Origin: Patescibacteria group bacterium
GTDB lineage: Bacteria; Patescibacteriota; Patescibacteriia; JAQUQO01
Assembly: GCA_028716045.1 (NCBI GenBank)
Contig: JAQUQO010000001.1
Span: 320,942-384,941, forward strand
Length of the DNA: 64,000 nt
Direction: 5' to 3'
Positions 2,527 through 61,239 of the stretch are shown here, piece by piece; within the stretch, counting starts at the first letter, position 1; every line of letters begins with the position of its first letter. A program made the translations under genes and the position numbers. Below the pieces are notes generated by a model. That model worked only from the letters and a program-made list of their open reading frames with translations. It was not told the DNA's origin and did no database searches.

Positions 2527-2985
2527 ATGGCTAAAAAATTGCCCATAGAAAAGGGTGAAAAAAATAAAATATTGCGCAGAAAGTCGGTGGAGTTAGCCAC
2601 CGAAAAAATTACCTCTTCAGAAATCAAGGAGTTGATTGGCGATATAATAAAGACGATGAAAGAAGAAAAAGGTGTTGGTTTAGCTGCTCCACAAATCGGA
2701 GAAAATATCCGTTTGTTTTGTGTTGATACCAAAGAAAAACCTTTGATTTTTATTAACCCTCGTATAACAAAAAAATCTCTCGGGAAAGAAATAGCCGACG
2801 AGGGATGTTTGTCATTGCCAGGAGTATGGGGTCCAGTAAAGAGAAGTAAAAGCGTAGAAGTGTCTTTTTATAACGAGCAGGGTATAAAAATAAAAATTAA
2901 AGCGAGCGGTCTGCTTGCCCGGGTGATTCAACATGAGTATGACCATTTAGACGGTATTTTATTTATTGACAGATTGAAAAAATAA
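2527..2985 (+). CDS. def: peptide deformylase
   Basis: Motifs GVGLAAPQIG, EGCLSLPG and QHEYDHLDG. Start moved to ATG 2527 (MAKKLPIEKG...) because the upstream TTG overlaps the -10 box. Confidence 0.93.
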   Translation: MAKKLPIEKGEKNKILRRKSVELATEKITSSEIKELIGDIIKTMKEEKGVGLAAPQIGENIRLFCVDTKEKPLIFINPRITKKSLGKEIADEGCLSLPGVWGPVKRSKSVEVSFYNEQGIKIKIKASGLLARVIQHEYDHLDGILFIDRLKK

Positions 2986-2988
2986 AAT

Positions 2989-3016
2989 GGGAGAGCTACA
3001 CAATTATAGCTCTCCC
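2989..3016 (+). promoter_or_regulatory. perfect 10-bp stem hairpin between def and fmt; possible attenuator or RNA-processing site
   Basis: GGGAGAGCTA cacaatta TAGCTCTCCC. No clean T-tract follows it. Confidence 0.3.
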
Positions 3017-3091
3017 CTCTGCCGGGTTGGAGTTGTCTCTTTTGGACAATCGGTTAAATAATATAATATTAAATATTTTTTGTCAATATTA

Positions 3092-4118: not shown

Positions 4119-6311
4119 CTATGCCTCGGGGCTATATCCTCGCTGAGTGAGGATAAAACGTAGGTGACGACGGACAGAGGGGACAGTGAGATAAAGCTGA
4201 TTAAACTGGGTAGCGTTTATTTTATAAACAGTCACCCTGCTAATCGCTTTAATTGTGGCGGTTCTTTCTTTCTGTAGCTCAAGAGCTACAATTTCGCCCA
4301 CAATATCTCGCGGGCCAAGAACCGCAATCTGCTCCCCTCCTTTTTCCACACTTACTTCGCCCTCAAAGATGACATAACAATCCTTTGAAGTTGTCCCTTC
4401 GTTGATGATAATCATTCCCTCGGGAAAGACCATTTTTTCAGCGAAAGAACTGATTTTCGCGAGCAGTTGAGCTGAAACCTCAGCGAAAATTTTCACCCGA
4501 CGGAGAAAATCTCTTGTTTTCCACATAGTCTGAAGAGCTGAGATTGTTTCGGGATTATGACTTATAAACTCAGTAAAAATTTCTCCGGGAATAGAGAATA
4601 TTTTCACTGGCGAAACGGCTCTAACGGTTGCATTTCGCGGTTTTCGTTGGACAAAAGCCATTTCCCCAAAAATATCCCCGGCTTGCAGTAGGGCAATTTT
4701 CTTTTGAGAAGAATTGGAGCCGACCAATACTTCAAATATGCCACTTAAAACCACATAGACATTGTCCGCTTTACTTCCCTCTTCTATTACTACTGTTCCA
4801 GTCGGTTTATTTTGGATTGTTCCGCTTTGTAGAAAAGCAGAAAGCCAGGATCGGTCAACCCCGAGTTGATTAAGAGCATCTTGGATGCTTATTACATCAA
4901 ATAGGTCGCTGTTACCTGGTACCAGATTAAAATGCTGGGTAGGTCGGAGAAGATGATTTTTGATTTCAGGGGGAAGCTTAGAAGAGTTACTGTGGGTTAA
5001 GAAAATCTTTTCTCTCACTTCCGGGTTACTTTCGATGTAAGAAGCGAAGTCTACGGGTTTCCCATGAAGGGGCGCCCCGCCGGCGTCATAAACGGCCATT
5101 ACTATGTCCTCCCGTTTAGTGGCATTGAGTATTTCCAAGAGGCGATCTCGGCGATTATCCGAAATAACCCCCTTTTGGTGAAGCTCCTCTATGCCGGTCC
5201 AGGAAAGATTATCTCCGCCGATAAGAAGACTTTTCTTTTCTCCGTTACTATCCACTATTGAAAAAGTGAAGCCGATAGTAGGAATACTATGCGCGTTGTA
5301 ATGAGCGGTAATACAACCGCCAGGGATTTTTACCGGTTTAGTCGGAGTAAGGAGGACAAAGTCAAAGTACCCCCTTACCTCGTTTTCGTCGATATCCCAG
5401 ATAGCCGAGATTTTCAGACAGAGTGAGCCGAAAATTTCCGGAGTAGTAATCACTTTTAGCTTTTTGTCCTTGCGGTGAATTGATGATGCGGCCCAGTGGT
5501 CGTCATGGACATGAGTCGGACAGACGGCTTCTATCTGAAGTAAGCTCAATCCCATTCTTTCTACCACTTCGGCTACGTACGGCATAGAATCAATAAGATA
5601 GAAAAGTCCCCTCGCTCCAGCTATAAGACCGCTGCAAGCGTTCTCGGGGTCAAAACCGTTTGACGCACTTAGCACCTCTAAGCCGAGACTTGACGGCTCA
5701 ACAGCTTTGTAGAAAACTGGCAAGGGAAACGGAGGAATTTGTTCTCCTTCAAAATTGAGATTAATAACATCGAGGTCGTTGACCAAAAAGATGTTTTTGT
5801 CGAGTTTAGCGATTTTAACACCTCTAGCCCCTTCTTGAATTACCACTTCTCCCAACTCGTTAAAATAGTGAAAATCCACTAAATCACGAATTTGGAGAAT
5901 TTTACCATCTCTTTTGAGGGCAAAGTGGTCCATTTCGCGGCGGAGCATCTCTGCTACTCCCTTAGAAGTTCCCCAACGTTTCATCTCTTCGTCAGTCGGT
6001 CCTAAAAGAGTAATACGTAAAATCGTCTCAATCTGTTGGCACTGTTTTTTTGTGCCGACGATTATCAATTTTTCTCCTCTAGAAAATCCGCCGGAATTGA
6101 AAAGATGATAATAGAGAATAAATTCAAAGGAGAATTGAGAGTTGCCGCCGACATAAGGGACGGAGGGGGCAACGACAATTCTCACCCTAGGAGAATCGGG
6201 TGTTTGCAATATTTTTTTTACCACCTCGGGTGGCGCGCCAAACAGCACTCCTCCTATTTCCGTTTTAACCAAATAACACCCTTCACAAAGTTTTATTGTT
6301 TGCTCGTTCAT
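4119..6311 (-). CDS. multidomain protein: N-terminal unknown region, metallo-beta-lactamase-fold hydrolase core, and two C-terminal cyclic-nucleotide-binding (CAP-family) domains
   Basis: MBL motif THVHDDHW, with downstream His/Asp residues HYNAHS and DAGGAPLHG. Two cNMP-binding signatures: GDIFGEMAF...RNATVRA and VGEIVALE...RTATIKA. Strong SD AGGAGG lies 7 nt upstream of the ATG. Confidence 0.8.
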   Translation of the reverse strand: MNEQTIKLCEGCYLVKTEIGGVLFGAPPEVVKKILQTPDSPRVRIVVAPSVPYVGGNSQFSFEFILYYHLFNSGGFSRGEKLIIVGTKKQCQQIETILRITLLGPTDEEMKRWGTSKGVAEMLRREMDHFALKRDGKILQIRDLVDFHYFNELGEVVIQEGARGVKIAKLDKNIFLVNDLDVINLNFEGEQIPPFPLPVFYKAVEPSSLGLEVLSASNGFDPENACSGLIAGARGLFYLIDSMPYVAEVVERMGLSLLQIEAVCPTHVHDDHWAASSIHRKDKKLKVITTPEIFGSLCLKISAIWDIDENEVRGYFDFVLLTPTKPVKIPGGCITAHYNAHSIPTIGFTFSIVDSNGEKKSLLIGGDNLSWTGIEELHQKGVISDNRRDRLLEILNATKREDIVMAVYDAGGAPLHGKPVDFASYIESNPEVREKIFLTHSNSSKLPPEIKNHLLRPTQHFNLVPGNSDLFDVISIQDALNQLGVDRSWLSAFLQSGTIQNKPTGTVVIEEGSKADNVYVVLSGIFEVLVGSNSSQKKIALLQAGDIFGEMAFVQRKPRNATVRAVSPVKIFSIPGEIFTEFISHNPETISALQTMWKTRDFLRRVKIFAEVSAQLLAKISSFAEKMVFPEGMIIINEGTTSKDCYVIFEGEVSVEKGGEQIAVLGPRDIVGEIVALELQKERTATIKAISRVTVYKINATQFNQLYLTVPSVRRHLRFILTQRGYSPEA

Positions 6312-25228: not shown

Positions 25229-26863
25229 TTATTGTTCACGCCGGTGACGCAGAGAATTCAGCGAAATTTCCTCTGCGTTATCATCAACTTTTAATATCGG
25301 CTCCACTTTGTAGGTTTTTTGGGCCGGTAAGGGTTTTTTGTCTTCGCGTTCCAAAGACGCCAGTTGTTCCCTTAATAATTGAGTTTTATCCCGCCGACTT
25401 CTGGCTTTAGCTAAACATTCCCGGCAATAAACCGGACGCACGCCGTCGGGCTTGAAATTTACCATTATCTCCGCCCCACATTCGGCACATTTTGCTGGAT
25501 ATTGGACAATGTCTTTTTTCTCTATTCTTCCGCCCTCTCCTCCTTCGCCCTCCTTTTCTCTTCTGATATTTTCTTTCGCTTCTTCACTAATACTCCAACG
25601 CATAATTTTTTCTTCCACTACCGACCGCGGTTTGGTATAACGTTCTCTGGAAACTTTAATAATCTTTTCCCTATTCTCCTGGCGCTTGGCAATCGGCGGC
25701 AAGGTGGTGGCGGAAAAAGGCATGGTAGCCACGCCGTCAACCATCAGTTTTAGATAAACATCGTATTTTGTCAGGTTAACCAAATCCTGTTCGGTGAATT
25801 GTGGAGCGAACTCTTTTTCCAAGACCTCGGCATCGGCGGCGCCGACGCGAAAACAGACCAGCGTGCCGACGTTGCCAAAAACCGCGGCCTGAACCTTTTC
25901 ATCAAGCTGTTCAATATACTGATGACCGACTATTAAATTCAAATGATATTTGCGGGCTTCCGACAGAACATTGGCGAAAGATTCGGTGGAAAAATTCTGG
26001 AACTCGTCAATATAAAGATAAAAATCCGGCCGGTCCTCTTCCGGCATATCAATTCTTTCCATGGCCGCCAACTGAATTTTGGTAATCATCATCGCGCCGA
26101 GCAAAGAAGAATTATCCTCACCCATTCTGCCCTTGGAAACATTCAAAATTAAAATTTTCCGGTTATCCATAATATCGCGGATGTCAATGGTGGATTTCAC
26201 CTGGCCGACGACATTGCGAATCAAAGGGCTAGATAAAAACTGCCCGACCTTATTTTGAATCGGAGAAATAACTTCCTGTAAAACCCTTTCATTCCATTTG
26301 GAATACTCATCAACCCAAAAAGACCTGACCACGGGGTCGGTAATATTATTGATGACTTTTTTGCGGAAAGATTTGTCGGTTAAAATTCTCATTACGCCGA
26401 GCAAAGTGCTTCCCGGATAATCCAGCAATGCCAAAATGGCATTTCTCAAAATATACTCCAAGCGTGGTCCCCAGGAATCAGCCCAAATCTTTTTGAAAAT
26501 TCCGATAAGCCCCGAAGCGATTAAATGCTGTTGGGCCACGTCAACTTTCTCCAAAACATTAAAAGCAATCGGATATTCCATATCCGCCGGATTGAAATAA
26601 ATCACATCGTTTATCCTGGTGGGCGGAATAAAATCCAAAATTTTTTCGGCCATATCACCATGCGGGTCAACAACCGCCACGCCTTGGCCACTCATTATGT
26701 CCTGCACCACCATATTTTCAATTAAAGTCGTTTTGCCCATGCCGGTTTTACCAATTACATACATATGCCGTCGGCGGTCGTCGGTTCTTATGCCAAATCT
26801 GACCTTTTTATTGCGAAAATTAGTTGTGGCAAAAAAATTTATCTTTTCGGCCATATTATTCAA
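25229..26863 (-). CDS. TraD/VirD4 (T4CP)-like FtsK-HerA superfamily P-loop ATPase, lacking a TM domain, with a C-terminal CxxC-N17-CxxC zinc ribbon
   Basis: Walker A VIGKTGMGKTT; VVDPHGD (cf. DPKGD of TrwB/TraD); Walker B FYLYIDEFQNF; RKYHLNLIVGHQYIEQL; C-terminus CAECGAEIMVNFKPDGVRPVYCRECL. The start overlaps the upstream gene's stop by 8 nt. Confidence 0.7.
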   Translation of the reverse strand: MNNMAEKINFFATTNFRNKKVRFGIRTDDRRRHMYVIGKTGMGKTTLIENMVVQDIMSGQGVAVVDPHGDMAEKILDFIPPTRINDVIYFNPADMEYPIAFNVLEKVDVAQQHLIASGLIGIFKKIWADSWGPRLEYILRNAILALLDYPGSTLLGVMRILTDKSFRKKVINNITDPVVRSFWVDEYSKWNERVLQEVISPIQNKVGQFLSSPLIRNVVGQVKSTIDIRDIMDNRKILILNVSKGRMGEDNSSLLGAMMITKIQLAAMERIDMPEEDRPDFYLYIDEFQNFSTESFANVLSEARKYHLNLIVGHQYIEQLDEKVQAAVFGNVGTLVCFRVGAADAEVLEKEFAPQFTEQDLVNLTKYDVYLKLMVDGVATMPFSATTLPPIAKRQENREKIIKVSRERYTKPRSVVEEKIMRWSISEEAKENIRREKEGEGGEGGRIEKKDIVQYPAKCAECGAEIMVNFKPDGVRPVYCRECLAKARSRRDKTQLLREQLASLEREDKKPLPAQKTYKVEPILKVDDNAEEISLNSLRHRREQ

Positions 26864-47788: not shown

Positions 47789-48133
47789 ATGAAAGAAAAC
47801 ACAACGACAAAACCCCAATTTTATATCAAAGAAAAAGGCGAATTTAAATCAACGGAATTAACCCATAATGACCGAATTAGGGTCTTTACTTACCGTTCAG
47901 AAGAGATACATCTATTCAGAGGAAAGAAACGTATCTATATAAAAATAAACCCACAAAACAAAAAACCGAAAAAATGTATAATAAAAACTAGAATGCGCTT
48001 TTATTCTGTAAACGAAGAAGATATGGTACCGCTAATAATGGCCTGTATGTCTCTTTTACTACCAGTTGGGTTGGCTCTAGAGACAAATCCTAAATGCGAG
48101 AAAGAAATAATAATAAAAAAAACGAACTCCTAA
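47789..48133 (+). CDS. hypothetical protein (114 aa)
   Basis: Strong SD GGAAGGAG. A candidate promoter TTGACA-17-TAATAT at 47655-47683 takes its -35 from the folD remnant. Confidence 0.45.
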   Translation: MKENTTTKPQFYIKEKGEFKSTELTHNDRIRVFTYRSEEIHLFRGKKRIYIKINPQNKKPKKCIIKTRMRFYSVNEEDMVPLIMACMSLLLPVGLALETNPKCEKEIIIKKTNS

Positions 48134-48146
48134 ATCTAAGATTGCA

Positions 48147-48174
48147 AAGCCGTGTAAATAACACGGCTTTTTTA
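48147..48174. terminator. bidirectional terminator between the 114-aa gene and the giant gene
   Basis: AAGCCGTGT aaata ACACGGCTT TTTT. Confidence 0.55.
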
Positions 48175-48195: not shown

Positions 48196-51100
48196 TTAAT
48201 AAAATCCCGTATCTATATCATCCATAATATCCTTGCCTTTTTCTCCCGAATCTACTTTCGGTTCTTGCTGAGCATCTTTAATCTCTGCTGGAGCCGGGGG
48301 AATTTCTTTTTTTATTTCTGGACTCGCTGCCGGTCTTGATAGTGGAACTTCCGGGGCTGGCGGGGCTGAAATCCCCATTCCTTCTGTTGATTTCTCTAAG
48401 GGCATATCCAGGGTAATCGCGCCGGCTTTTTCTTTGGCTAAATCAATCGGTGAAGATTTATATGATTTGTAATCCTCTCTTTCGGAAGTAAGATAATAAA
48501 CGTTCGGGCCAACCAAGAACCCGTATCGGCCGGCGGAATCAGTAACTTGAGCCGCTAGTAATTTATTGAATTGAATATCAAAAATGCGAACCACGGCTTT
48601 GCCCAAAGGTTTTTTCGTCCCCTTATCATAAACAATACCCCAACCCTTTGGTTTTGAAGGATAAGCCAAGCGGCGGAACAAGAAATAAAGCATAAAATGA
48701 AGCGCCACCAAAATTCCCATCAGTAGTTTAGGCACAATGGCAAAGGTGACAATTGACAAGCCCAATCCGGAAAGCGAAATGCCATTTTGCACCCGACGAC
48801 CGACGGCCAAAGCTAAAATCTTTCTGTTCGGCTTGTCTTCTTTCACCGGGTCAAGCGGGATATTGGCGGTAATAACAGCTCCGCTTGCTTCTACTTTTAT
48901 GTTTTCCCCGTGGTATAAATCAAGGAACGCCATATCCTCTTTTTTCTCTCCCAACAATGACGTGGGATATTTAAATTCCACTTTTTTCACCTCTATCCGA
49001 TAAGTCCCCGCTTCTTTAATTATCAGATTATAACGCCCTTGTTTGTCGGTAATTTGCGTCTGAACTAAAGTTCCGTTTTGGACATTAATCAAGCGGACAA
49101 TAGCCAAATCAATCGGCTCCTTGGAAATAGAATTATACACCGTCCCCCAGCCCTTCCTCTTGCGACGCGATAATAATCTAAAAGGTTCGGTGAAAATAAA
49201 CTGTAAATAAGGAATGAGATACACAAAAGAGATAGCCGTGGAAGCATTAACCGCCACCACCGCCACTAAAGTCGGGGCGACGTAATTTTGAGCGGCTTTT
49301 TCCACCTGCGGGTCATCAGCCAGCTCTCCCACGGTATTAACTATAACTTCAACTGTTCCCACAAGGGAATTGAGGAAATCCGCAACCGGTGATTCCACTA
49401 TGTCCTCTTCGTTATTGTCATCAATACTCAAACACCCCGCGTCAGCCGGATAATCCGTCTGACCATCTCCATCATTATCCGCCCCGTCAAAACAAGCAGG
49501 GAGAGAAACGGTGAATTCTTCTACGTTGGAGATTATTTTGTATTCCTTGGCTATCTCATCATAAACTCTGACGTAAGATTTATGCGCTCCCGGAGGCAAA
49601 GAAATTTTTATATTTTCCGCCCATTCCTCGTTCTGCGGCGTAAATTCATACTTGTAAATCTCGCTCTCCACGACTAATTCATATGTTTTGCCAATTTCGG
49701 CATTATGCATAATAACGGTAATGCCAGCATCCATTAATTTGCTTTCCGCGGACACTTTGCCTTGCCGCACCTCACTAAGTTTAACTCCCTCCAAGCGAGC
49801 GGCTATTTCTTTGATATTTATTTCACCAATAGTCACTCTTATTATCGTATCTCTTATTTTCTCGCCGATTTCTTCTTCCTGCTCCTCTTTTATTTCTTCC
49901 GCTGTTTTCTCTGTTACTTTAAACTCAAACAAAGAAGAATAAACTTCTCCCACTTTCACTCTTAAAGTATGCGCCCCAAATAATAATTCATCCGTTAAAG
50001 TATAGCTGAAAAAACCTTCGCTGTTAGCTTTCGTGCTGTCCAGATATTCTCCGTCCAAATAAATATCCACTGCGCCGTTGCTGACATAAGCGTTACCCCT
50101 GATAGTCGGCGCTGTGTCAGTAATTTCGGAATTGTCCCCGGGATATGTGATAACCGGTGGTTTTTGTTCTGCTTTTTTATATAATCCAAAATACGCCGAA
50201 CCCTTGCCGCCGCGTTCCAAATCCACGGTTACCATTTCCGAAGTAGTCAGAGTGTATCCGGAAGGCAAAACCAGAGAATATTTCCCTTTTTCTATCTTTC
50301 CGATTTTAACAAAATGTTTTCCCGCTCTTCTGCCATCCACCGTAGAATGCCCCCCTGCCACGGAACTCACGGAATACACATTAACTTCTGTTTCCTGCGG
50401 ACCACTCAAAGCCCCGTCTCCATTCAAATCATAATAAACGAGCGTTCTGATTCCTTGCACACCCTTCTCGCCCTTGTCATATTGGCCATTATTGTTGCCG
50501 TCAAAAAAAGTAAAAATATCAATGGCGCCGGCGCTGACCGGATTTAAAAGGGTGTTGGAGGTAGCAGATTTATTTTCTCCGTTTTGCGTATATTCGGCTT
50601 TAGCCACATTAGAAATAGTATGGGGCACACTTTGCTTTACCTCATCAGGCGAAACTTTAAAGGGTAATGTCAGATAACCTGACTGACCGGCTTTTACTTC
50701 TCCCAAATTAAATATTATTTCGCAAGAGCTGGTCTCCTCTTCCCCTGCACATTTTAGAAAATCTTCCAACCGGCCAACCGACTCGCTATTTTTCTTCAAA
50801 TAACCGTCGTCAAAAATAACTGAATCTATTTTATCTTTTATAACTACGTTTTTCAGATCGTCTTTCGTTTGATTGATATAATCAATCTGATAAACAATAC
50901 TGTCTTCCGGCTGCACTGCCACGCCATTGCCGGCGTAATTTTCCACTTTTATTGAAGCATCATTTAATCCGGCCATGGTAGCCATCATCGCCACTTTCAC
51001 TATTCCCAAAACAACTGCCATTGCTAAAGTGGAATAGGCCTTTCTCTCAAATCTTATTCTCACCATGGAACGCGCGGCTCGATTCCACAAAACCAGATGA

Positions 51101-54100
51101 TAGCTTAAAATAACCAAAGAAATCAAAATAAAAAAAGACATCACCGCTGAAAAATTTCTAAGATACTTTAGATTCTCCAGCGGCTGGATTTTTGTTCCGA
51201 TATTTAAAGAGGAGCTTAAAACCGCGGAGCCCTTCACTTCTCCCTGCCCCGGTTCCTTAATGACCGCTGTTTTAATAAGCGTGAAAGACGGGGGCAAGGT
51301 TTTGGCCGTGAGCGCTTCTGACCAGGGCGTGTCAACTCCTCCGCCATTTCGTCCCCTGGCGCGAATAGTATAAGAAGTGTCGGGTTTTAAATTGCCAAAG
51401 GTAAAACTATTTTGTCCGGCGGCGAATTCCGAAGCCAGCGGTGTTCCGTCTTCCGGAATTCTATCTCCCTCGTAGATTTCAAAAGTCACTCCCGCTTGCT
51501 CCCAATCCGTCCCGACCGGGAAAGAATAATTATCCACGCTCGCCCATAAAGAAGTAGTGAGCGCCGCCTGCAAGGTCGGCTTAGACGGCGGTTCAGCTAA
51601 AGTCCAAACAGCGGGACAAACCGCGCAATCTCCCGAATAAGCATTGGTTATTTTATTTTTTACGCAAACCTTGCGGCCATCAAGTTTAGTATTATATTTT
51701 AATCCTTCCTTCGAACTCTCCTCGTAAAAGCCAAAATATTCCTGCGTAAAATACGCATAAACAGTGGACTCCTTCGCCGGAATCCAGGACTTTAAATACT
51801 GGTCGGTATTGTAAACAGCCGTCAAATATCCGGACCAAGGAGTGGTGTACCCGGAAGAAACCACATCCACCATTTTGTCAGAGGTCACAAAAGGAACAAA
51901 TTCCAGATTATCCCTGTCGGATTCGTTCAAAAAATCAATGGGAAAATCCACCACCCAAATAATAGCATGCCCTTCTCTGCCCCCATAAGAACTGGCGTCA
52001 AATCCTCCGAAGCCGCGGCAATTGGTCGCGTTAACCATAAACCCGGCCGCGATATCTTCGGCATAATTTAAAGTGACATTATAAATTATGGGCGTATCCG
52101 TATCCGGCGTTAATACGGCCTTCCATCTCAAATCGCTTCCGCTGGTGGCAAAAACGTATTCCACCCCATTCGTCACCGCCACCCAAGTGGTCCCGCCATC
52201 ATTGCTTAAATAATAGGCAATAGTGGAAGCGCCCGGCAGATAATGTTCGGCCGTTAAGGTGGCTCTTAAGATATTTCTCCCAGGATTGGCCATGGCAACG
52301 GATTGAGCGATATAAGTGCCGGCGGTTTGAGTTAATTGCGGAGTGAAAATAAAGGAATCGCCCGAAGAATAAGCGACCAGCAGTTCTTTCATGGAGTCGC
52401 GATTAATGTCATGGGCGAAAACCGCGGAGGAAGGTGCGGCGCTTAATAATTCCACGGTAAAATCGCCCCGACCGTCGTTCCGGTAAATATATGTTCCTGC
52501 GGCGCCACCAACTAAATATAAATCAACATCTCCGTCATTATCCAAATCATCGCCCCGGAAAATTCCCGTCGTGCCCAATGACTGTTTAGTAAATGAGCCT
52601 TGGCCATTATTCCAATAGATGGCGGAGTTTATATCGGAATTAGAAACGACGACGTCTTTCCAGCTATCGCCGTTTAAATCGGCGGAAACTATATTATCTG
52701 TGCTGCCTTCTCCGAATTGGCTTTCCCGTATAAATGTTCCGCTGCCATTATTCCTGTATAAAAAATTCTGCTGGCTTACTCTATCACCCACCAAAATATC
52801 CACGTCTCCGTCATTATCTATGTCATCCGTGTATCCCTGAAGCGTGTTCTCCCACGCCAAACCCAAATCTTCCTGAATAAAAGTTGAACCATCGCCGTTG
52901 TTTCTAAAAATAAAATTCTGGCCGTTTTCAAAAATAATAATATCCTGGTCGCCATCCCCTTCCACGTCCGCCGGCCAAAGCTGTCTTTCATTACCAATAC
53001 TTACTATTTGGGTTATAGTGCTGAAATTGCCCGCGCCGTCATTGAAATAAACGCAATCCCAGCCGTTATCAGCCCCCACTAAAATATCCAGATACCCGTC
53101 GCCGTTAAAATCAGCCGCGCCATCAATATCATTATTGGCGCAAGAAACATTGGTAAAGGGAGCGGTGGCCGTAAATCCCCCACCACCATCGCCCAGATAG
53201 ATTTTACTGCTGGTGGCGGCATCGGCTCCGGACAGCACCGCCAAATCTTCATAACCATCATAATTCACATCCCCCAAAGGCATTATTTTTGAAGTCTGCG
53301 CGGGGAAATTGGCTCCGCCGTAAAGTTGCGCCCAACCGCCATCGGCGTCATTATTATGAAGATTATTTTCATAAATATAATTTTGGTCATCGGCATCGGC
53401 GCAAGTTCCGCCGATACAAGAAAAATAATGAATGATATCCTCATCGCCGTCTTTATCTATATCCGCAGCCGCCAAGTTATCCGCCTTATCAACATTAGCT
53501 GACCCACTGGCGAAATATCCGGTTTCTTCCGTAAAAGTCCCGCTGCCCTTATTGCGCAACAGGCCGTTGATGCCCACGCCGCTCGCTATGACCGCCAAAT
53601 CCATATCACCGTCCAAATCGGCGTCAACGTCAATCATTTTGGCGTAATTAAAACTAAAAGCGGCATTGGCCGTAAAAGTTCCTTGCCCGTTATTTTGATA
53701 TAAAAATAAACTCGCGCCATTTGAAGCAATGATGTCCTCATCTCCGTCATTATCAAAATCATTAACCACCAAACTATCGTTGCCGCTACCGGCCGCATAA
53801 GCCAAAGTGCTCGCCAAAGTAAAGGCGCCCGTCCCATCATTAGTATAAATTTTCGCGCCAACGCCGTTATCGCAAACAATGACGTCCATGTCTCCGTCAA
53901 CGTCAACGTCAACGGCTTTAATGGTCCGAGTGTCGCCAGCGTTGAAAGTGTCACTGGAAGTGAACGTGCCATCACCGTCATTGAGCCAGAGTTTATCCTG
54001 CGCGGCGGTTCCTTCCAAGATATCAACATCGCCGTCCTTATTAACATCGGCCGCGTCCAAAGATTGGGTATTGCTGGCACCAAATCCCGAGTATTCGCTG

Positions 54101-57100
54101 GCCGCGCCAAAAGTTCCGCTGCCATTATTCAAATAATAATAATTTTGACCATTGTTGCCTTGAATAATATCCTTATCACCATCCTCGTCTAAATCCACGG
54201 CTAAAAGCGTATTGGTATTTCTGCTCGTGCCGCCGTCGGGAAAAGGAGTTGATTCTGTAAAAGTTCCGCTGCCATTGTTCTTGTATAAATACATTGGGTT
54301 GCCATAATTGCCCGCTACAATATCCTGATCTCCATCAGTATCAATATCAACGGACAGAATAAAGGAGGTGTCATTGGCCGCGGCCGCCGGACTTAAAGCG
54401 GCGCTGCCGACAGCGAAAGTATTGGTCGCTGGCGCCCGAATCACCTCTCCGACAGCGCTCCATTCGGTCGTAGTGGTGGCGCTATCGCGCCAAACTGTGG
54501 TGTCAAAAGTATCAGTAATGCTTCCCCTGATGGCGGTAAAAGAAAAAGTGGCGCTATAAGCTGTGCCGCCGTTTTCATCAACGCCCGCCACCCTCCAATA
54601 ATAAGTCGTCTTGGGGGTTAAAGTATATTTCGCGGGTAAGGTGAAAGAAGCCGTATCTCCGGAATTATAAAAATTGACCTGCGACCATCCCAGAGAATCA
54701 TCTTTGACATACCAGATATTGTCTTCTTTTTGGTAAAAAGTTAAAACATCTTTGTTAAACGATGAATCCGCGGCGATTTCCAAAATATAATGCAGAGTAT
54801 CACTATCCGTATCCGTAGTGGAAAATTCAAAAGTGGGGTTTAAAGAAACTCCGGTCGCTCCGTCAGCCGGCGCGGTTAAAGAGGGTGTCCCGGGGTTGGT
54901 GTTGCCGTAAGTTATGGAAATATCAGAAATTGACGCCGAATAAGCGACATCCGTGGTGGCTAATATCGCCTTCCATCTTAAATCTGAACCAGTGGTTGTA
55001 AAAGTATGCGCTACTCCGGAAGTGGCCGCCTCCCAAGTTCTGCCGCCATTGTTGGATAAATAATAAGTGACAGAAGTGTTGGTCGGAGTAGTGGCCGTGG
55101 CTGTAAGAGTAGCCACATTTATATTTTCCACCGTGCTATCAACTATCTTGGATAGTATTGTGCTGTTATTATATTTATAAGAAAAGCTCTGCTCTAATTC
55201 GCCATAACCGCTCAAAAATATTTTTTTATCAACGTCATAATTAGGAGAGACAACTAAGGACTTATAATTAACGTCAGCCAGAGAGCTTCTGCTTTTCCAA
55301 ATTAAATCAATTGAAGTATCGTCGGTAAAAATAGTGTCCGAACTGTTGTGGGAAACTCCGCGCAAATCCAGATAACCATTATTATCCATATCGATAAGAC
55401 AGATGCTTGCGTCCGGACCGTAATCACTGGCTGGCTCGCCCGGGTCATAGGTGTAATCCGCGGTAGTGTTAAAAGTAGGGGCTCCATAATAGGCATAAAA
55501 CTTTCCGCGATGAAAAGTTTCTCCCGCTGACGCCCGATAATCCGGAGCCGCCACGACGACATCATCATAACCATCTTTATCTACATCGGCTGCTTCTACT
55601 AATTCGCCAAAATCGCTGCCGCTATCGTCAGCAGAATCATTGATAGTGCTATTGGCAGAAACGGTTGTCAGAGTGGATGCCAGTGAAGCGCTGCCGTTAA
55701 AAACATAAACACGCCCATCGCCGTCGCCAGCAGCACGAGAAGCTCCCACCACAATATCGTTATACCCATCGCCATTCACATCACCGGCAAGGGATAAATC
55801 TATGCCAAAAACATCACCAGCATCACCGGTTAAGGTGACGTCAGCCGTTGTATCAAAAGATTTTCCGCCGTAATAAATATAAACCCGCCCGGTATTAGCG
55901 CTGTAACTGGGCGCGCTAATCGCCAAATCATCAAACCCGTCGCCATTAACATCACCGGCACTCACCGCCGCTCCAAAAAGGTCGCCAGCCGCCGCGCCGG
56001 ACAAAGCATAATCATACACGTCATTAAAAAGTTTTCCCCCAAAATAAATCACCACTCCGCCCTGATTAGCTCCCTCTCCATTATTGTAGGTATATATACC
56101 TACAATAATATCTTTAAAACCATCGCCATTGATATCGGCAATAGTCACGCCATTATCACTGATTGTTTCAGCCGTAACATCCACATCGTCTAACGTATAA
56201 TCAACCACTGTATTAAACGTACTGCCGCCCAATAATACTTCAAGATTGGCGCCGTTTTTATCTAGCACATCCGCATAACCATCACCGTTAATATCGCCTC
56301 CGGCATAGATATTATTAAGCGTGTAATCTGCCGTGTTATCAATTCCGGCGGTGGCATTTAAAAATATACTCGTGGCATTAGCCAAATCCTCCAAACCGTC
56401 ACCGTTAATATCGCCCAAATTAACCCCTCTCTTTTGCTCCGCGTAAGAAGAGCCAAAAGCGCTGGGCATTAAATTCCAATTCTTAGCCGTGCCGCTATTA
56501 GAACTCACATATATTTGCGGAGTATCATTAAAACCTGCCCAAATACGTTTGTCACTGCCGCTATAATTATAATCTGGGGAAATGGCTATAGTCCGCAGGA
56601 TCTCTGTCATTCCTGTCGGCGTTATATCTGAAGCTCCCCCTTCAAAACGGTCCACTGTCATATATAAACTGACAGTGGTGTTGCTCCAAACCCAAGCCAC
56701 GCATTTTTCCGGATTGGCAACGCAATTAGCGGTTCCATCAAATTGCGGAGCTAATAACAAATGGTCCCAGCTCCCTCCGGGAATCACCGCCCAGCTAGTA
56801 CCACCATCTATTGTTACTAGACGGGCGCCGGTAGTGGTGGCAAGAACCTCGCTATCAGTTGCGAAGTTTGGGGATATTTTTATATCTGTCACTTCATTTA
56901 CCACATTTGTTCCCGCGTCAAAAGTGGCTCCGGAATCGATGGATTCGTAAATTTTACCGCCGGCCGTGCCTAAAAATAAATTTGCGGAATTTGCCGGGGA
57001 AATAGCAATGACAGTAATGCGATCATACGTTGTGCCAACGGGAGCACAGGAAATAGTGGAGGCCGTCTGGGCCCAAGTAGCACCGCCATCAGTGCTTTTA

Positions 57101-58863
57101 TAAAATTTACAGGCAGTGGCGTTGATTCCCCATTCACCGGCGTAAATAGTACTATCAGTAATATAATTAGGAGAAAGTTGATAAGCGGAAATATAAGAAG
57201 TGGCGGCGGTGATTCTCGTCCAAGTTATTCCGCCATCGGTTGATTTATAAATAAAACCATTGCAGATATTTTCTCCGGCCACATCACCCTCTTGGGAGCA
57301 GGCAAATATCGTGTTGTCACTGGCAAAATTCGGAGATACTTGAACATCTATTAAATCCCCGAGCGATAGACCAGTTAGATAAGAAACTGTCCATACTCCT
57401 CCGCTATTAACGGCTTTTTGCAACCCCTGCCCAAGGGTGCTCATTATTATAGTGCCATCAGTAGTATAATTAGGTGACATGTCTCCATCGGTCACTTTCC
57501 TCATTGTTCCATCGGTTGTAAGGTCAGCTATTTGCGAACATTCCACGCCCAAAGCCAGACCCCCCCCATCATCAACACACTGCCAAGAACCCCAGTTTTG
57601 TATTTCCCAATGTTGGTTGAAATAATAAATCTCATCTTCGGCACTGTAAGCGGCGCTATTATACGCCGGAGAAATTTCTAAACCGTCCTGCGCCATGGCT
57701 GCTATATTTTTAGACCAAGCGCAAGCCGAAACATTTGGGTCATTACAAGTAGTGGTCTTAAACGTTTGGCCCGTATAAGTCGGCGCGCTTCCGCCGGAAA
57801 CGGCTAAAATCGTATTGTCAGTATTATAAGCCGGAGAAAATTCTATATCATTAATATATCCTTCACCCCCAGGAGTCGGGAGGGTTACGCCAGTATTTAT
57901 CTCCGTCAAAGTGCAGGTGGCGGCCGCGGCTGTACAATCGCCGGAACCAAAAAATCCGCTGCCTTCAGTTCCTACAATAATCGTGCCGTCAGTAGCGTAT
58001 GCCGGAGAAACTTTTAAAACAGTAATATCCCCCGCAGCGGTGGAAGCTACTGCCGCGTTACCATTATCCCAGGTGACACCCTTGTCATGGCTTTTATAAA
58101 TAGCTTGGCCGGTGGAACCGAAAAGAGTGCAGCCAGTTGGCGTCGTGACGCAATCGGCCGTAGTATCACTATAAGAAGTGGCAGGCATTAAAGCTAAAGC
58201 AACGGGGGCTGTAAAACTAGCCCAAGTTGAACCACCGTCAGTACTTTTATAATTGCCATAAGTAAGGGTCGTGTAATCCAAGACCAGAACAAAAATAGTT
58301 GAATCATTATCATAATCAGGCGACAGAGCATACAAACTAACAACTTTCCCGCTGACTATTTTAGTGGCGTTATCAATAGACCAACCACCGCCCGCTAAAG
58401 TATCGGTCCAAGTCGCACCCTTGTCCTCACTTTTATATAAACCGCCGTTAAATCTGACAAACATCGTGCAGTTTGCCGGGTTAGCTCCACAATTCGCTTC
58501 ATTTTCATTATAAGAAGGGCTTAAGGCGGGCGTATCAGGTGAGCTGGCCGTATCAAACCCGCTCCCTGAAATATCCCATAAACCATCACCTGCTAAAGAC
58601 GTTACCGTGCCGGCCGAAGAATTCCACGAGGCCGTAGAATGCGCCAAGTCCAAATTAGCGCCGGTAGAAAGGTTGTCGATGAAAGTGTACCCCGTAGCTT
58701 TGGCGTTTCTGTCCGTCCACAAGTTTATGCCGTAAATCAAAGACAATACCAAAGAAATAATAGCTAAAACCGAAACAAACCCAAAAAGTTTTCTGAGGCC
58801 GAAAAGGTCGCGGCAAAAATGTAAATACTGGCCAAAAAGTTTATTGGCTTTCCCTCGTTTCAT
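48196..58863 (-). CDS. giant multidomain surface protein (3555 aa): signal anchor, BNR/Asp-box beta-propeller, FG-GAP/VCBS repeat arrays, Fn3-like repeats, SdrD-B/Cna-B-like and CarbopepD_reg-like domains, several TM segments
   Basis: Repeated YKS(T/E)DGG(A/S)TW Asp-box motifs. More than 25 D(I/V/L)(N/D)xDGxxD(I/L)(I/V)VG FG-GAP-type repeats. A duplicated segment YYLSN(N/D)GG(R/T)TW...GSDLRWKA(I/V)L. FFDGNNNGQYDKGEKGVQG. A Cys-rich CFDGADNDGDGQTDYPADAGC. Three internal hydrophobic helices. Confidence 0.85.
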   Translation of the reverse strand: MKRGKANKLFGQYLHFCRDLFGLRKLFGFVSVLAIISLVLSLIYGINLWTDRNAKATGYTFIDNLSTGANLDLAHSTASWNSSAGTVTSLAGDGLWDISGSGFDTASSPDTPALSPSYNENEANCGANPANCTMFVRFNGGLYKSEDKGATWTDTLAGGGWSIDNATKIVSGKVVSLYALSPDYDNDSTIFVLVLDYTTLTYGNYKSTDGGSTWASFTAPVALALMPATSYSDTTADCVTTPTGCTLFGSTGQAIYKSHDKGVTWDNGNAAVASTAAGDITVLKVSPAYATDGTIIVGTEGSGFFGSGDCTAAAATCTLTEINTGVTLPTPGGEGYINDIEFSPAYNTDNTILAVSGGSAPTYTGQTFKTTTCNDPNVSACAWSKNIAAMAQDGLEISPAYNSAAYSAEDEIYYFNQHWEIQNWGSWQCVDDGGGLALGVECSQIADLTTDGTMRKVTDGDMSPNYTTDGTIIMSTLGQGLQKAVNSGGVWTVSYLTGLSLGDLIDVQVSPNFASDNTIFACSQEGDVAGENICNGFIYKSTDGGITWTRITAATSYISAYQLSPNYITDSTIYAGEWGINATACKFYKSTDGGATWAQTASTISCAPVGTTYDRITVIAISPANSANLFLGTAGGKIYESIDSGATFDAGTNVVNEVTDIKISPNFATDSEVLATTTGARLVTIDGGTSWAVIPGGSWDHLLLAPQFDGTANCVANPEKCVAWVWSNTTVSLYMTVDRFEGGASDITPTGMTEILRTIAISPDYNYSGSDKRIWAGFNDTPQIYVSSNSGTAKNWNLMPSAFGSSYAEQKRGVNLGDINGDGLEDLANATSIFLNATAGIDNTADYTLNNIYAGGDINGDGYADVLDKNGANLEVLLGGSTFNTVVDYTLDDVDVTAETISDNGVTIADINGDGFKDIIVGIYTYNNGEGANQGGVVIYFGGKLFNDVYDYALSGAAAGDLFGAAVSAGDVNGDGFDDLAISAPSYSANTGRVYIYYGGKSFDTTADVTLTGDAGDVFGIDLSLAGDVNGDGYNDIVVGASRAAGDGDGRVYVFNGSASLASTLTTVSANSTINDSADDSGSDFGELVEAADVDKDGYDDVVVAAPDYRASAGETFHRGKFYAYYGAPTFNTTADYTYDPGEPASDYGPDASICLIDMDNNGYLDLRGVSHNSSDTIFTDDTSIDLIWKSRSSLADVNYKSLVVSPNYDVDKKIFLSGYGELEQSFSYKYNNSTILSKIVDSTVENINVATLTATATTPTNTSVTYYLSNNGGRTWEAATSGVAHTFTTTGSDLRWKAILATTDVAYSASISDISITYGNTNPGTPSLTAPADGATGVSLNPTFEFSTTDTDSDTLHYILEIAADSSFNKDVLTFYQKEDNIWYVKDDSLGWSQVNFYNSGDTASFTLPAKYTLTPKTTYYWRVAGVDENGGTAYSATFSFTAIRGSITDTFDTTVWRDSATTTTEWSAVGEVIRAPATNTFAVGSAALSPAAAANDTSFILSVDIDTDGDQDIVAGNYGNPMYLYKNNGSGTFTESTPFPDGGTSRNTNTLLAVDLDEDGDKDIIQGNNGQNYYYLNNGSGTFGAASEYSGFGASNTQSLDAADVNKDGDVDILEGTAAQDKLWLNDGDGTFTSSDTFNAGDTRTIKAVDVDVDGDMDVIVCDNGVGAKIYTNDGTGAFTLASTLAYAAGSGNDSLVVNDFDNDGDEDIIASNGASLFLYQNNGQGTFTANAAFSFNYAKMIDVDADLDGDMDLAVIASGVGINGLLRNKGSGTFTEETGYFASGSANVDKADNLAAADIDKDGDEDIIHYFSCIGGTCADADDQNYIYENNLHNNDADGGWAQLYGGANFPAQTSKIMPLGDVNYDGYEDLAVLSGADAATSSKIYLGDGGGGFTATAPFTNVSCANNDIDGAADFNGDGYLDILVGADNGWDCVYFNDGAGNFSTITQIVSIGNERQLWPADVEGDGDQDIIIFENGQNFIFRNNGDGSTFIQEDLGLAWENTLQGYTDDIDNDGDVDILVGDRVSQQNFLYRNNGSGTFIRESQFGEGSTDNIVSADLNGDSWKDVVVSNSDINSAIYWNNGQGSFTKQSLGTTGIFRGDDLDNDGDVDLYLVGGAAGTYIYRNDGRGDFTVELLSAAPSSAVFAHDINRDSMKELLVAYSSGDSFIFTPQLTQTAGTYIAQSVAMANPGRNILRATLTAEHYLPGASTIAYYLSNDGGTTWVAVTNGVEYVFATSGSDLRWKAVLTPDTDTPIIYNVTLNYAEDIAAGFMVNATNCRGFGGFDASSYGGREGHAIIWVVDFPIDFLNESDRDNLEFVPFVTSDKMVDVVSSGYTTPWSGYLTAVYNTDQYLKSWIPAKESTVYAYFTQEYFGFYEESSKEGLKYNTKLDGRKVCVKNKITNAYSGDCAVCPAVWTLAEPPSKPTLQAALTTSLWASVDNYSFPVGTDWEQAGVTFEIYEGDRIPEDGTPLASEFAAGQNSFTFGNLKPDTSYTIRARGRNGGGVDTPWSEALTAKTLPPSFTLIKTAVIKEPGQGEVKGSAVLSSSLNIGTKIQPLENLKYLRNFSAVMSFFILISLVILSYHLVLWNRAARSMVRIRFERKAYSTLAMAVVLGIVKVAMMATMAGLNDASIKVENYAGNGVAVQPEDSIVYQIDYINQTKDDLKNVVIKDKIDSVIFDDGYLKKNSESVGRLEDFLKCAGEEETSSCEIIFNLGEVKAGQSGYLTLPFKVSPDEVKQSVPHTISNVAKAEYTQNGENKSATSNTLLNPVSAGAIDIFTFFDGNNNGQYDKGEKGVQGIRTLVYYDLNGDGALSGPQETEVNVYSVSSVAGGHSTVDGRRAGKHFVKIGKIEKGKYSLVLPSGYTLTTSEMVTVDLERGGKGSAYFGLYKKAEQKPPVITYPGDNSEITDTAPTIRGNAYVSNGAVDIYLDGEYLDSTKANSEGFFSYTLTDELLFGAHTLRVKVGEVYSSLFEFKVTEKTAEEIKEEQEEEIGEKIRDTIIRVTIGEINIKEIAARLEGVKLSEVRQGKVSAESKLMDAGITVIMHNAEIGKTYELVVESEIYKYEFTPQNEEWAENIKISLPPGAHKSYVRVYDEIAKEYKIISNVEEFTVSLPACFDGADNDGDGQTDYPADAGCLSIDDNNEEDIVESPVADFLNSLVGTVEVIVNTVGELADDPQVEKAAQNYVAPTLVAVVAVNASTAISFVYLIPYLQFIFTEPFRLLSRRKRKGWGTVYNSISKEPIDLAIVRLINVQNGTLVQTQITDKQGRYNLIIKEAGTYRIEVKKVEFKYPTSLLGEKKEDMAFLDLYHGENIKVEASGAVITANIPLDPVKEDKPNRKILALAVGRRVQNGISLSGLGLSIVTFAIVPKLLMGILVALHFMLYFLFRRLAYPSKPKGWGIVYDKGTKKPLGKAVVRIFDIQFNKLLAAQVTDSAGRYGFLVGPNVYYLTSEREDYKSYKSSPIDLAKEKAGAITLDMPLEKSTEGMGISAPPAPEVPLSRPAASPEIKKEIPPAPAEIKDAQQEPKVDSGEKGKDIMDDIDTGFY

Positions 58864-58957
58864 ATAAAATATAATCTCTAACCATTATTGGATTATACAA
58901 TAAATCCTGAAAAATATCGCTGTGGATAAAAACTTCAAACAGTAAACTTAAAAAATT

Positions 58958-60237: not shown

Positions 60238-61239
60238 TTAAGGCAAAAGGTTATTTTCTTTTAGAAAATCGGCATACAAAATAGCCGCCGCGTCATTGGG
60301 GTGCCAGGAGTCCCCCGGAATTTCCTGTACTTCAATCCCCGCATTAATAGCTTGCTCCGCTATGGGCGAAAGGTCAAAGTGGCGAATATTTAGTTTTTCA
60401 AGAATCTTTAGCGCGGCTTTTTGATTATCCTTTTCCTCATATGACCATGTTTGGTAGGGCTTGAGGATGGGTAGCACCAAAACCGTCAATTTTGCTCCAT
60501 CCTGCATCGTGAGATTTTTCAACTCTAATAAAGCCGCTTCAACCTCGCTTTCAATAACACTCCTGTCTTTCTCCTCATTCAAAAGCGATCCTAGATATAA
60601 TCGGTAGATAGAGCTATTTTGAAGGAGCCACGGGCTGACACCTTGAATGGATATTTGCGGTGTGTAGTAAATAACAAGCTGATTCTGGTTGTCAAAAAAA
60701 ACGGCTGCCGTTACTCTAAAATCGCTGTTATGAAAACCGAGGATTACGTGGTCTGGGGCGATTTTACGATTATATCGCTTATAAAAAGCGACCTCCTGAA
60801 CCGTGGCAAATGCCGACACACCGGCGTTCCAGTATTCAAACTCCTCACCGTAACAAAACCGCAACGCTCTAACAACCCGCCCGATTTCCGTAGTTGAATC
60901 CCCGATAAAAAGGAGGCGAACTACGCCGGGACGTTTTTCCATGGTATAGGAATTGCGTAAAGTCCCCGCTTCAGAATAACGTTTAACACCGAGGATTGGT
61001 CGGAAACCGAATTCAGGGTCTACTGTAAACTCTTTGGTTCTATCCTCTTTTTCTTTCCACACCCATGGTATCTCGGTTTCGGTGGAGAAAGAATGAAAGT
61101 GATAAACACCGGAAAAATAGATACGGGAATAAATCATATCGGCTACTATAATAGCGCAAACTAAACCGAATGCCAAAAGGGCCAAAAGGACTATTCTAAA
61201 CAAAAACAATTTTCGGGCGCTTATTTTTTGTTTTTCCAT
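60238..61239 (-). CDS. membrane-anchored SGNH/GDSL-family hydrolase
   Basis: N-terminal TM; LLFIGDSTT (GDS block); C-terminal DSWHPN (catalytic DxxH). Confidence 0.65.
   Translation of the reverse strand: MEKQKISARKLFLFRIVLLALLAFGLVCAIIVADMIYSRIYFSGVYHFHSFSTETEIPWVWKEKEDRTKEFTVDPEFGFRPILGVKRYSEAGTLRNSYTMEKRPGVVRLLFIGDSTTEIGRVVRALRFCYGEEFEYWNAGVSAFATVQEVAFYKRYNRKIAPDHVILGFHNSDFRVTAAVFFDNQNQLVIYYTPQISIQGVSPWLLQNSSIYRLYLGSLLNEEKDRSVIESEVEAALLELKNLTMQDGAKLTVLVLPILKPYQTWSYEEKDNQKAALKILEKLNIRHFDLSPIAEQAINAGIEVQEIPGDSWHPNDAAAILYADFLKENNLLP

Follow-up and report, generated by a model that had tools for sequence, protein, structure and literature searches.

What does a single, unusually long open reading frame (ORF) do for a Patescibacteria cell, and how would its product be held at the surface? 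We addressed this question for a stretch of 64,000 nucleotides, hereafter the window, from a Patescibacteria group bacterium (assembly GCA_028716045.1, contig JAQUQO010000001.1, positions 320,942 to 384,941). The ORF, here called the giant gene, encodes 3555 amino acids. A first-pass annotation made from the DNA letters described an adhesin-like surface protein with puzzling internal membrane helices. Our analysis suggests that the product is probably a membrane-anchored, calcium-stiffened binding (adhesin-like) surface protein of Patescibacteria. Two things are new here. The internal helices are part of a multi-pass design that is conserved. In addition, the C-terminus is a widespread, unnamed composite module that, on modelling, is structurally unprecedented and whose folded domains are predicted to lie in the cytoplasm. 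Coordinates of all features are given in Table 1.

We focused first on the integrity of the gene. It lies on the minus strand, which the first-pass annotation had not stated, starts with ATG and runs for 3555 codons plus a stop, with zero internal stops. It fills 16.7% of the window, as estimated before (about 17%). An ORF of this kind might be an artefact, with a sequencing or assembly error fusing several ordinary genes, and the first-pass annotation had named such a split as the outcome that would overturn it. The evidence contradicts this. An identical 3555-residue protein is encoded on an independent Logan contig (SRR22315506_171256; 18.5 kb). The NCBI record, MDD5490535.1 ('FG-GAP-like repeat-containing protein [Patescibacteria group bacterium]'), lies on a 927,681-bp contig. 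A second copy from a metagenome-assembled genome (MDD5043255.1; 812 kb contig) differs at 1 of 3555 residues. Hence, three assemblies agree on the ORF. Furthermore, an exhaustive HMMER search found an orthologue, P0001, of 3595 amino acids in a different sample (ERR15087767). BLASTP aligned residues 1-3555 to residues 1-3595 of P0001 in one segment, with 57% identity and 102 gap positions. The orthologous locus (L006) shares synteny with the window: FolD, SHMT, a small ORF and an Elp3-like radical SAM enzyme. The frame is therefore open across 10.7 kb despite 43% amino-acid divergence, which rules out a frameshift or split-gene scenario. Tandem Repeats Finder detected nothing inside the ORF beyond one 37-bp AT-rich array. 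Hence, the protein-level repeats are old and diverged rather than an assembly stutter. We give the artefact explanation almost no weight and conclude that the giant gene is a single, real, intact and conserved gene.

The protein begins with a basic segment and a hydrophobic helix at residues 26-48 (transmembrane helix 1; TM1), in agreement with the N-terminal signal anchor called previously. This helix may stay uncleaved as an anchor or be cut off as a signal peptide. A possible signal-peptidase site, AKA/T, occurs at 53-56 (slashes within motifs mark the cut). The pattern A-[KR]-A-TGY is kept in the orthologue, where AKA/TGY becomes ARA/TGY.

Next in the chain are residues 56-800. Here, seven Asp-box motifs (S-x-D-x-G-x-T-W; residues 145-690) alternate with eight SPxYxxDxTI motifs, and there are eight C-x6-20-C pairs. 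Two further Asp-boxes, one in each copy of a duplicated domain described below, bring the total to nine. The earlier count of more than six Asp-box blades was thus correct. Pfam scores for BNR-type families were below cut-off (BNR, PF02012, 25.5 against 27 bits; Sortilin-Vps10, 27.5 against 33; BNR_2, 15.4 against 31.4). The region is homologous to PSII_BNR/Sortilin-Vps10/BNR 'Ycf48-like' proteins of about 800 amino acids, with E-values down to 1.9e-81, 25-30% identity and 74-92% query coverage. An AlphaFold2 (AF2) model built with 50 homologues was all-beta with repeated blades (mean predicted local distance difference test score, pLDDT, 73). In a Foldseek search of the Protein Data Bank (PDB), the top 13 matches to this model were all xyloglucanases of glycoside hydrolase family 74 (GH74). 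These enzymes are tandem seven-bladed Asp-box propellers. On this model, residues 56-800 are a tandem Asp-box propeller with a GH74/Ycf48-like fold.

The same matches raise the prospect that the protein is mainly an enzyme. The GH74-like double propeller would then be an active glycoside hydrolase, acting on host or environmental polysaccharide, and the remainder would provide carbohydrate-binding and spacing modules. Alongside the Foldseek result, the NCBIfam model 'F510_1955 family glycosylhydrolase' matched in part (E 4.5e-14) and the PDB entry 3b7f, 'glycosyl hydrolase, BNR repeat', matched by sequence (E 0.0011); both point in this direction. However, identity to the GH74 enzymes was only 12-15%, with TM-scores of 0.25-0.39, and the NCBIfam match reached 52 bits, a long way short of the 175-bit cut-off. 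Moreover, the sequence relatives are Ycf48-like/BNR proteins without shown activity. We consider a mainly enzymatic role quite unlikely, and a binding role for this propeller remains the reading that we prefer.

The protein's middle portion is rich in FG-GAP repeats. For the whole protein, Pfam FG-GAP / FG-GAP_3 (PF01839, PF13517) scored 269.3 / 111.1 bits against cut-offs of 26.9 / 22.1, with 17 stretches at 269.3. We counted 20 strict DxDxDG loops and one variant, VEGDGDQD near residue 1965, read in the translation. The loops are spaced by 39-65 amino acids and fall into groups of 7+7+7. Hence, there are three propellers. The FG-GAP/VCBS repeats reported previously are real, and far above the Pfam cut-offs, but the two long arrays described then did not stand. 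In propeller 2 the seven loops lie at 1506-1801; in propeller 3, six strict loops and the variant lie at 1865-2152. All 21 loops are of calcium-binding type and are predicted to bind calcium.

A domain of about 90 amino acids occurs on either side of propellers 2 and 3. Residues 1246-1301 and 2196-2251 share 57% identity over 56 amino acids (E 1e-18), so the duplication noticed in the first-pass annotation is genuine. Its description as Fn3-like was not borne out. The YYLSNxGGxTW...GSDLRWKA domain has no Pfam match, fn3 included, which leaves that label unverified, and a PDB sequence search returned only designed or irrelevant weak matches. The real fn3 domain lies elsewhere, at 2467-2520. Between copy B and this domain, residues 2291-2455 have no assigned domain and contain four cysteines.

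Hydropathy identified five internal hydrophobic helices (TM2 to TM6; residues 2574-2592, 2613-2631, 3197-3225, 3362-3378 and 3380-3399), or six with the N-terminal anchor. Only three, in the C-terminal third, had been counted before. They had also been thought unusual for an extracellular protein. Instead, two form a conserved hairpin with a basic loop and three belong to a C-terminal module common to many Patescibacteria proteins.

The TM2-TM3 hairpin joins two regions predicted to be outside the cell, and is 65% identical, without gaps, in the orthologue. A candidate explanation, that two separately translated genes were fused at Met2601, was rejected: the orthologue has one continuous frame here, and this methionine is not conserved. 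Other family members also contain additional helices. Among the 150 best matches to the module (see below), 37 have extra hydrophobic segments ahead of it. Six giants (P0034, P0051, P0052, P0096, P0111 and P0124) have a helix pair 300-420 amino acids upstream of the module. Their pairs enclose a conserved basic loop of about 55 amino acids (LIWxLLTKEPAxVF...) and the second helix is followed by a small-x-Ala/Gln pattern ([SG]-x-A/Q). P0052 (2844 amino acids) repeats the plan of our protein: Sortilin/BNR, Big_5, FG-GAP, fn3, helix pair, DUF11 and module. Since helix pairs with a signal-peptidase-like pattern recur in the family, the hairpin resembles a relic or working copy of a C-terminal anchor followed by the next signal peptide.

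The internal pairs of these six giants may indicate polyprotein-style processing. Applied to our protein, TM3 (2610-2632) would be an internal signal peptide, cut by signal peptidase I after TMA/G. Two polypeptides would result: a propeller protein held by TM2-TM3 (and by TM1 if uncut) and a stalk protein held by the conserved module. The junction has the expected appearance, with a hydrophobic helix, the basic loop NRAARSMVRIRFERK, a second hydrophobic helix and then small-x-Ala. In addition, the [SG]-x-A/Q of the six relatives is the typical -3/-1 pattern. On the other hand, small-x-Ala after a helix is frequent by chance and the hairpin is conserved as one in-frame unit. The lack of conservation of Met2601 also means that there is no separate start. 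We regard cleavage into two products as unlikely, and continue with the protein as one chain.

Beyond the hairpin is a second outside region, an Ig-like stalk. SdrD-B-like domains had been proposed for the protein, but SdrD_B (PF17210) scored below its cut-off (25.8-28.8 against 29.7 bits). The best match overlaps CarboxypepD_reg, and the match at 2787-2809 reached 18.4 bits. The stalk leads to a Cys-bracketed DGD loop of MopE type, which occurs once only and not as the Cys-rich repeat suggested before. This motif scores as PF11617 in the homologue P0035. Of 142 family members, 28 have a Cys-bracketed DGD loop upstream of TM4.

The C-terminal module begins with a helix predicted to lie outside, followed by TM4 (3197-3225), a basic KGWG, transthyretin-like sandwich 1 (3227-3345), the TM5/TM6 hairpin (3362-3399), another basic KGWG and sandwich 2 (3403-3495). 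We searched with phmmer, using residues 2356-3555 as the query, against 1.84 billion cluster representatives (clusters at 50% identity). There were 4759 matches at E<=1e-3 and 954 at E<=1e-30. Apart from the orthologue, the best 150 all match only query positions ~815-1137 (residues ~3170-3492), with 33-55% identity; for the top matches, identity across the module was 40-49%. These 150 proteins are 334-3858 amino acids long (median 1103). The module is nearly always C-terminal, with a median of 15 residues after it, and 104 of the 133 Met-starting matches have an N-terminal hydrophobic segment. According to the names attached to the matches, named carriers are Uhrbacteria, Falkowbacteria, Buchananbacteria, Magasanikbacteria, Andersenbacteria, Parcubacteria or 'Patescibacteria group', all of them Patescibacteria. 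The carriers are annotated as 'hypothetical' or 'carboxypeptidase regulatory-like domain-containing protein'. When GTDB genome contigs were scanned, either with the C-terminal third or with the module alone, no confirmed relative emerged.

Within the giant protein, no other part is as well conserved in the orthologue as the module. Identity is 81% in TM4, 77% in sandwich 1, 81% in TM5-6 and 71% in sandwich 2; for the outside regions, it is 45-70%. Its two halves are alike, with 39% identity between residues 3220-3282 and 3388-3451. Judged from this similarity, the module is itself an ancient duplication. Motifs found family-wide include xWGxVY...KxPxDLAxVRL, VTDxxGR, D[LI]YHG, NIPxDP, a proline between TM5 and TM6 and a second xWG...TDxxGRY. 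Pfam recognises only the two sandwiches, as CarboxypepD_reg (PF13620; 47.3-56.8 bits against 32.3), NCBIfam recognises nothing and no model in either covers the composite. The carboxypeptidase-regulatory-like sandwiches of the first-pass annotation are therefore present. Downstream of the module, the last residues of the protein (3549-3555; 48199..48219) read DIDTGFY here and DVDTGFY in the orthologue, and the rest of the tail is 45% identical. The DTGFY end may be a C-terminal docking motif.

We modelled the module with AF2 from 62 sequences (pLDDT 88.9; predicted TM-score, pTM, 0.70). In module numbering, helices occupy 2-13, 16-41 and 44-63 of the model; then come one sandwich (71-170), a hairpin of helices (177-207 and 211-231) and another sandwich (240-320). 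Foldseek comparison with the PDB recovered single sandwiches only: SdrD B, SpaA/CnaB and the transthyretin-like domain of carboxypeptidase D. For the latter (5aq0), the target TM-score was 0.80-0.82. The query TM-score was never above 0.27. Hence, no solved structure resembles the whole module. A PDB sequence search with the C-terminal third found nothing. In the full-text literature searched we found no description of the module, although one may exist elsewhere.

To which side of the membrane do the sandwiches belong? The positive-inside rule is an established principle of membrane-protein topology. We combined hydropathy with counts of lysine and arginine over 62 module members. Net charge is +4.7 for the 15 residues after TM4, +4.0 for the 15 residues before TM5 and about +3 after TM6. 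On the outer side, the segment before TM4 has -1.4 and the TM5/TM6 turn is uncharged. This distribution predicts that both sandwiches are cytoplasmic, and not at the surface as had been assumed. The predicted topology is as follows: N-terminus in, residues 50-2570 out, loop 2595-2610 in, 2634-3195 out, and both sandwiches plus the tail in. The cysteines fit this arrangement without proving it. The predicted outside regions hold 30 of 31, mostly as C-x6-8-C pairs; the exception is Cys17.

Alternatively, both transthyretin-like sandwiches could be outside, as wall-proximal spacers or as binders of peptidoglycan or an S-layer, like Gram-positive CnaB/SdrD-B. The structural relatives in the PDB (CnaB, SdrD B and the carboxypeptidase D domain) are all extracellular, so a cytoplasmic placement would be unusual. 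Furthermore, the prediction divides the module's first hydrophobic stretch into two helices with a break between them, which is compatible with a re-entrant loop. Against this stand the three conserved lysine/arginine clusters on the sandwich side of the helices, with an acidic outer side, and a TM5/TM6 turn of just 1-2 residues. The module also contains zero cysteines, compared with 30 in the outside regions. We judge external sandwiches very unlikely, and the cytoplasmic placement is used below.

Taken together, the domains match those of calcium-dependent adhesins and receptors. With proposals in the literature, this makes a membrane-anchored binding protein the best explanation. The first-pass view that the modules are extracellular, adhesin-type and calcium-binding agrees with the Pfam FG-GAP and fn3 matches and with the cysteine distribution. 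Several points weigh against our interpretation. Hydropathy and the positive-inside rule are the only bases for the topology. The extracellular habit of the sandwich relatives, already mentioned, also counts here. TM4 is modelled as a kinked hydrophobic stretch of 30 residues, and a re-entrant TM4 could flip everything downstream. Many domain calls in 2634-3120, and the BNR call, are under Pfam cut-offs. Finally, the modelled GH74-like fold is compatible with an enzymatic role instead of, or besides, adhesion.

We propose the following mechanism. The N-terminal signal would route the chain through the Sec machinery, for which SecA and SecD genes are present in the window. About 2500 amino acids of propellers, and a further stalk of about 560, would be displayed outside. 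DxDxDG loops would bind calcium and stiffen the propellers. These, and the GH74-like domain, would bind ligands carried by another cell or by a polymer; the most plausible ones are a host bacterium's glycans or proteins. Host attachment is thus a prediction from sequence. The five helices, rather than a cell-wall sorting signal, would hold the protein in the membrane. The C-terminal module would place two beta-sandwiches and the charged tail in the cytoplasm. More generally, the module would be an anchoring, sorting or coupling device, joined to many different outside regions in Patescibacteria.

The heads carried by the module are indeed diverse: cohesin, Big_5, He_PIG, DUF4215, pretoxin-HINT (PT-HINT), fn3, MopE motifs, FG-GAP and type IV prepilin. 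A subfamily of 516-580 amino acids (P0182, P0210, P0219, P0235, P0239, P0262 and P0263) combines a canonical type IV prepilin N-terminus (RG/FTLxELLV; PF07963) with the module. We know of no described pilin type with such a head and a multi-pass C-terminal anchor. Two prepilin-headed genes from different genomes (L002, 8001-9656; L004, 8001-9557) are directly downstream of Fpg-type base-excision repair genes. PAP2 and YceG/MltG are downstream of both, and no type IV pilus genes were found nearby at either locus. Given this conserved neighbourhood, the short prepilin-headed genes look like the housekeeping orthologue of the module.

A role in host attachment has already been proposed for giant membrane proteins of Patescibacteria that carry integrin, fn3 and DUF11 domains, and is the usual interpretation of such proteins (Vampirococcus lugosii, PMC8080830; 'S. 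methylophilicida', PMC13059738). In the parts of these reports available to us, the Absconditabacteria giants resemble our protein in several ways. They belong to the same phylum-level group, exceed 1500-4000 amino acids, have transmembrane or signal regions and integrin (FG-GAP), fibronectin III and DUF11 domains, and have the same proposed role. As a candidate giant adhesin of Patescibacteria, our protein therefore falls in a class already proposed, and its gene is already annotated in NCBI. There are also differences. Those same parts list domains only, and describe neither a conserved C-terminal three-helix module nor internal hairpins (PMC8080830, PMC13059738). They concern Absconditabacteria, whereas the named relatives of our protein are Parcubacteria-type lineages.

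Integrin alpha and bacterial FG-GAP (VCBS) proteins share with our protein propellers of seven blades with DxDxDGxxD calcium loops, an extensive outside region, one or more membrane spans and a cytoplasmic portion, which in our case is predicted. Unlike integrin alpha, our protein has three propellers per chain and five extra helices, and in place of a short tail it is predicted to have folded domains in the cytoplasm. The integrin GFF[KR]R motif is absent from the whole protein by regular-expression search, and we know of no beta-subunit partner. Sortase-anchored Gram-positive adhesins (SpaA-type pilins and microbial surface components recognizing adhesive matrix molecules, MSCRAMMs, such as SdrD) likewise have CnaB/prealbumin-like stalks, calcium-binding B-type repeats and a C-terminal anchoring region. 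However, the anchor here is a 320-residue, three-helix module with sandwiches predicted inside the cell, and sortase motifs (LPxT[GASN] or NPxTG) occur nowhere in the protein by regular-expression search. The fold and repeat pattern of residues 56-800 are those of GH74 xyloglucanases and of Ycf48/sortilin-type Asp-box double propellers; in our case, at the 12-15% identity given above, the propeller is one part of a membrane protein. Lastly, C-terminal sorting tags (PEP-CTERM, PGF-CTERM and GlyGly-CTERM) also place one conserved C-terminal element on unrelated surface proteins of a lineage. They contain one helix within about 20-30 amino acids, and a dedicated enzyme cuts them off (PMC3237569). 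The present module is ten times larger and folded, and nothing suggests its removal. PEP- or PGF-type C-terminal signals are absent from the protein.

Table 1. Features of the giant gene and its flanks in window coordinates; residue numbers refer to the encoded protein.
Feature	Coordinates	Strand	Basis
Whole gene, 3555 amino acids plus stop	48196..58863	-	ORF; identical Logan copy; NCBI records; collinear orthologue P0001
Residues 1-50, basic cytoplasmic N-terminus (predicted) and hydrophobic signal anchor (26-48)	58714..58863	-	Hydropathy 2.55
Residues 56-800, tandem Asp-box (BNR) beta-propeller with C-x6-8-C loops	56464..58698	-	Motifs, homology, AF2/Foldseek
Residues 801-1200, FG-GAP seven-bladed propeller 1	55264..56463	-	FG-GAP 131.6 bits on segment; seven loops at 818-1158
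Residues ~1225-1320, duplicated Asp-box-containing domain, copy A (YYLSNNGGRTW...GSDLRWKA)	54904..55191	-	57% identity to 2196-2251
Residues 1321-1445, Fn3/Ig-like sandwich, weak	54529..54903	-	Pur_ac_phosph_N and Ig_Rha78A_N, both under cut-off
Residues 1496-2190, FG-GAP_3 (VCBS-type) propellers 2 and 3	52294..54378	-	FG-GAP_3 255.8 bits, 12 stretches on segment
Residues 2191-2290, duplicated domain, copy B	51994..52293	-	Self-comparison with copy A
Residues 2456-2530, fibronectin type III domain	51274..51498	-	Pfam fn3 (PF00041) 31.4 bits against cut-off 25, at 2467-2520
Residues 2571-2633, TM2, basic 17-residue loop NRAARSMVRIRFERK, TM3; hairpin joining two outside regions	50965..51153	-	Hydropathy 2.41 and 2.13
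Residues 2634-3120, outside region 2, Ig-like sandwich stalk (DUF11-like, SdrD-B/CnaB-like with DGNNNGQYD loop, Big_7/Big_13, one more)	49504..50964	-	Weak or sub-threshold Pfam
Residues 3124-3144, the one loop bracketed by cysteines, CFDGADNDGDGQTDYPADAGC; metal-binding motif of MopE type	49432..49494	-	Regular-expression match
Residues 3170-3495, conserved C-terminal module	48379..49356	-	954 clusters at E<=1e-30; orthologue identity; AF2; internal duplication
Residues 3496-3555, low-complexity Pro/Glu/Lys tail ending DIDTGFY	48199..48378	-	Translation
Hairpin AAAGCCGTGT-AAATA-ACACGGCTTT, terminator-like	48146..48170	both	10-pair stem then T run
TGTATAAT, putative extended -10-like element	58892..58899	-	About 29 nt upstream of ATG; read by eye, inference only

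The surroundings of the giant gene are bacterial. Neighbours in the window are housekeeping genes (SecA, SecD, Mur ligase, AlaRS, SHMT, FolD, ADSL and PriA). NCBI assigns the window proteins to 'Patescibacteria group bacterium'; the mention of ultra-small cells in the first-pass annotation was thus a fair guess, these being Patescibacteria (candidate phyla radiation, CPR). The terminator-like hairpin falls between the stop codon of the giant gene and a convergent ORF of 114 amino acids. At the other end, TGTATAAT is absent from the list of two-hexamer promoter sites. No tRNA or Rfam elements were found in the window. The giant gene is flanked by that 114-residue ORF (47789..48133, plus strand) and by a 333-residue ORF (60238..61239, minus strand), both without Pfam match and 'hypothetical' in NCBI. 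In the table for the orthologous locus, L006, the giant gene and FolD are listed with nothing between them; in the window, the 114-residue ORF occupies this place. At 50001..58000, the G+C fraction of the giant gene is 0.445-0.472, compared with 0.34-0.43 across most of the window. This probably reflects a composition rich in glycine, alanine and aspartate, not foreign origin.

Three further loci on the minus strand of the window were noted. At 29691..31727 there is a SecD/SecF-type translocase subunit of 678 amino acids with an inserted PPIC-type peptidyl-prolyl isomerase (rotamase) domain. The insert (residues ~247-361) lies between the SecD P1 subdomains, and the NCBI name is simply SecD. 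At 25229..26863 is a TrwB/VirD4-like coupling ATPase that carries a treble-clef zinc finger at its C-terminus. It adjoins a 470-residue ORF without Pfam match (26856..28268), and the two may belong to a Patescibacteria type IV secretion or DNA-uptake apparatus. At 4119..6311 is a protein of 730 amino acids with two cyclic-nucleotide-binding domains (128.6 bits) and no further recognised domain.

Patescibacteria account for a large part of bacterial diversity and, for the most part, live attached to other cells. To our knowledge, how they hold a host is known only for the type IV pili of a few Saccharibacteria. As an example of the giant surface proteins suspected of mediating contact, the giant gene is clean, complete and conserved. 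A bolder proposal, which we offer tentatively and think rather unlikely, is that the module is a Patescibacteria-wide system for installing surface proteins. It would be a shared dock, whose two cytoplasmic sandwiches tie varied heads to a common intracellular partner, with integrin-like coupling, outside-in or inside-out. Internal membrane hairpins followed by signal-peptidase-like sites would let one giant gene deliver several surface pieces. If this is true, giant propeller adhesins and cohesin, HINT-toxin-like and type IV prepilin heads would all share one membrane dock. The module also marks a large set of Patescibacteria surface proteins, in at least 954 clusters at 50% identity, and a profile of it would let the surface proteins of any Patescibacteria genome be listed. 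It is a defined target for topology and partner-finding work, and gives a handle on whether binding at the surface is coupled to the cytoplasm in these minimal cells.

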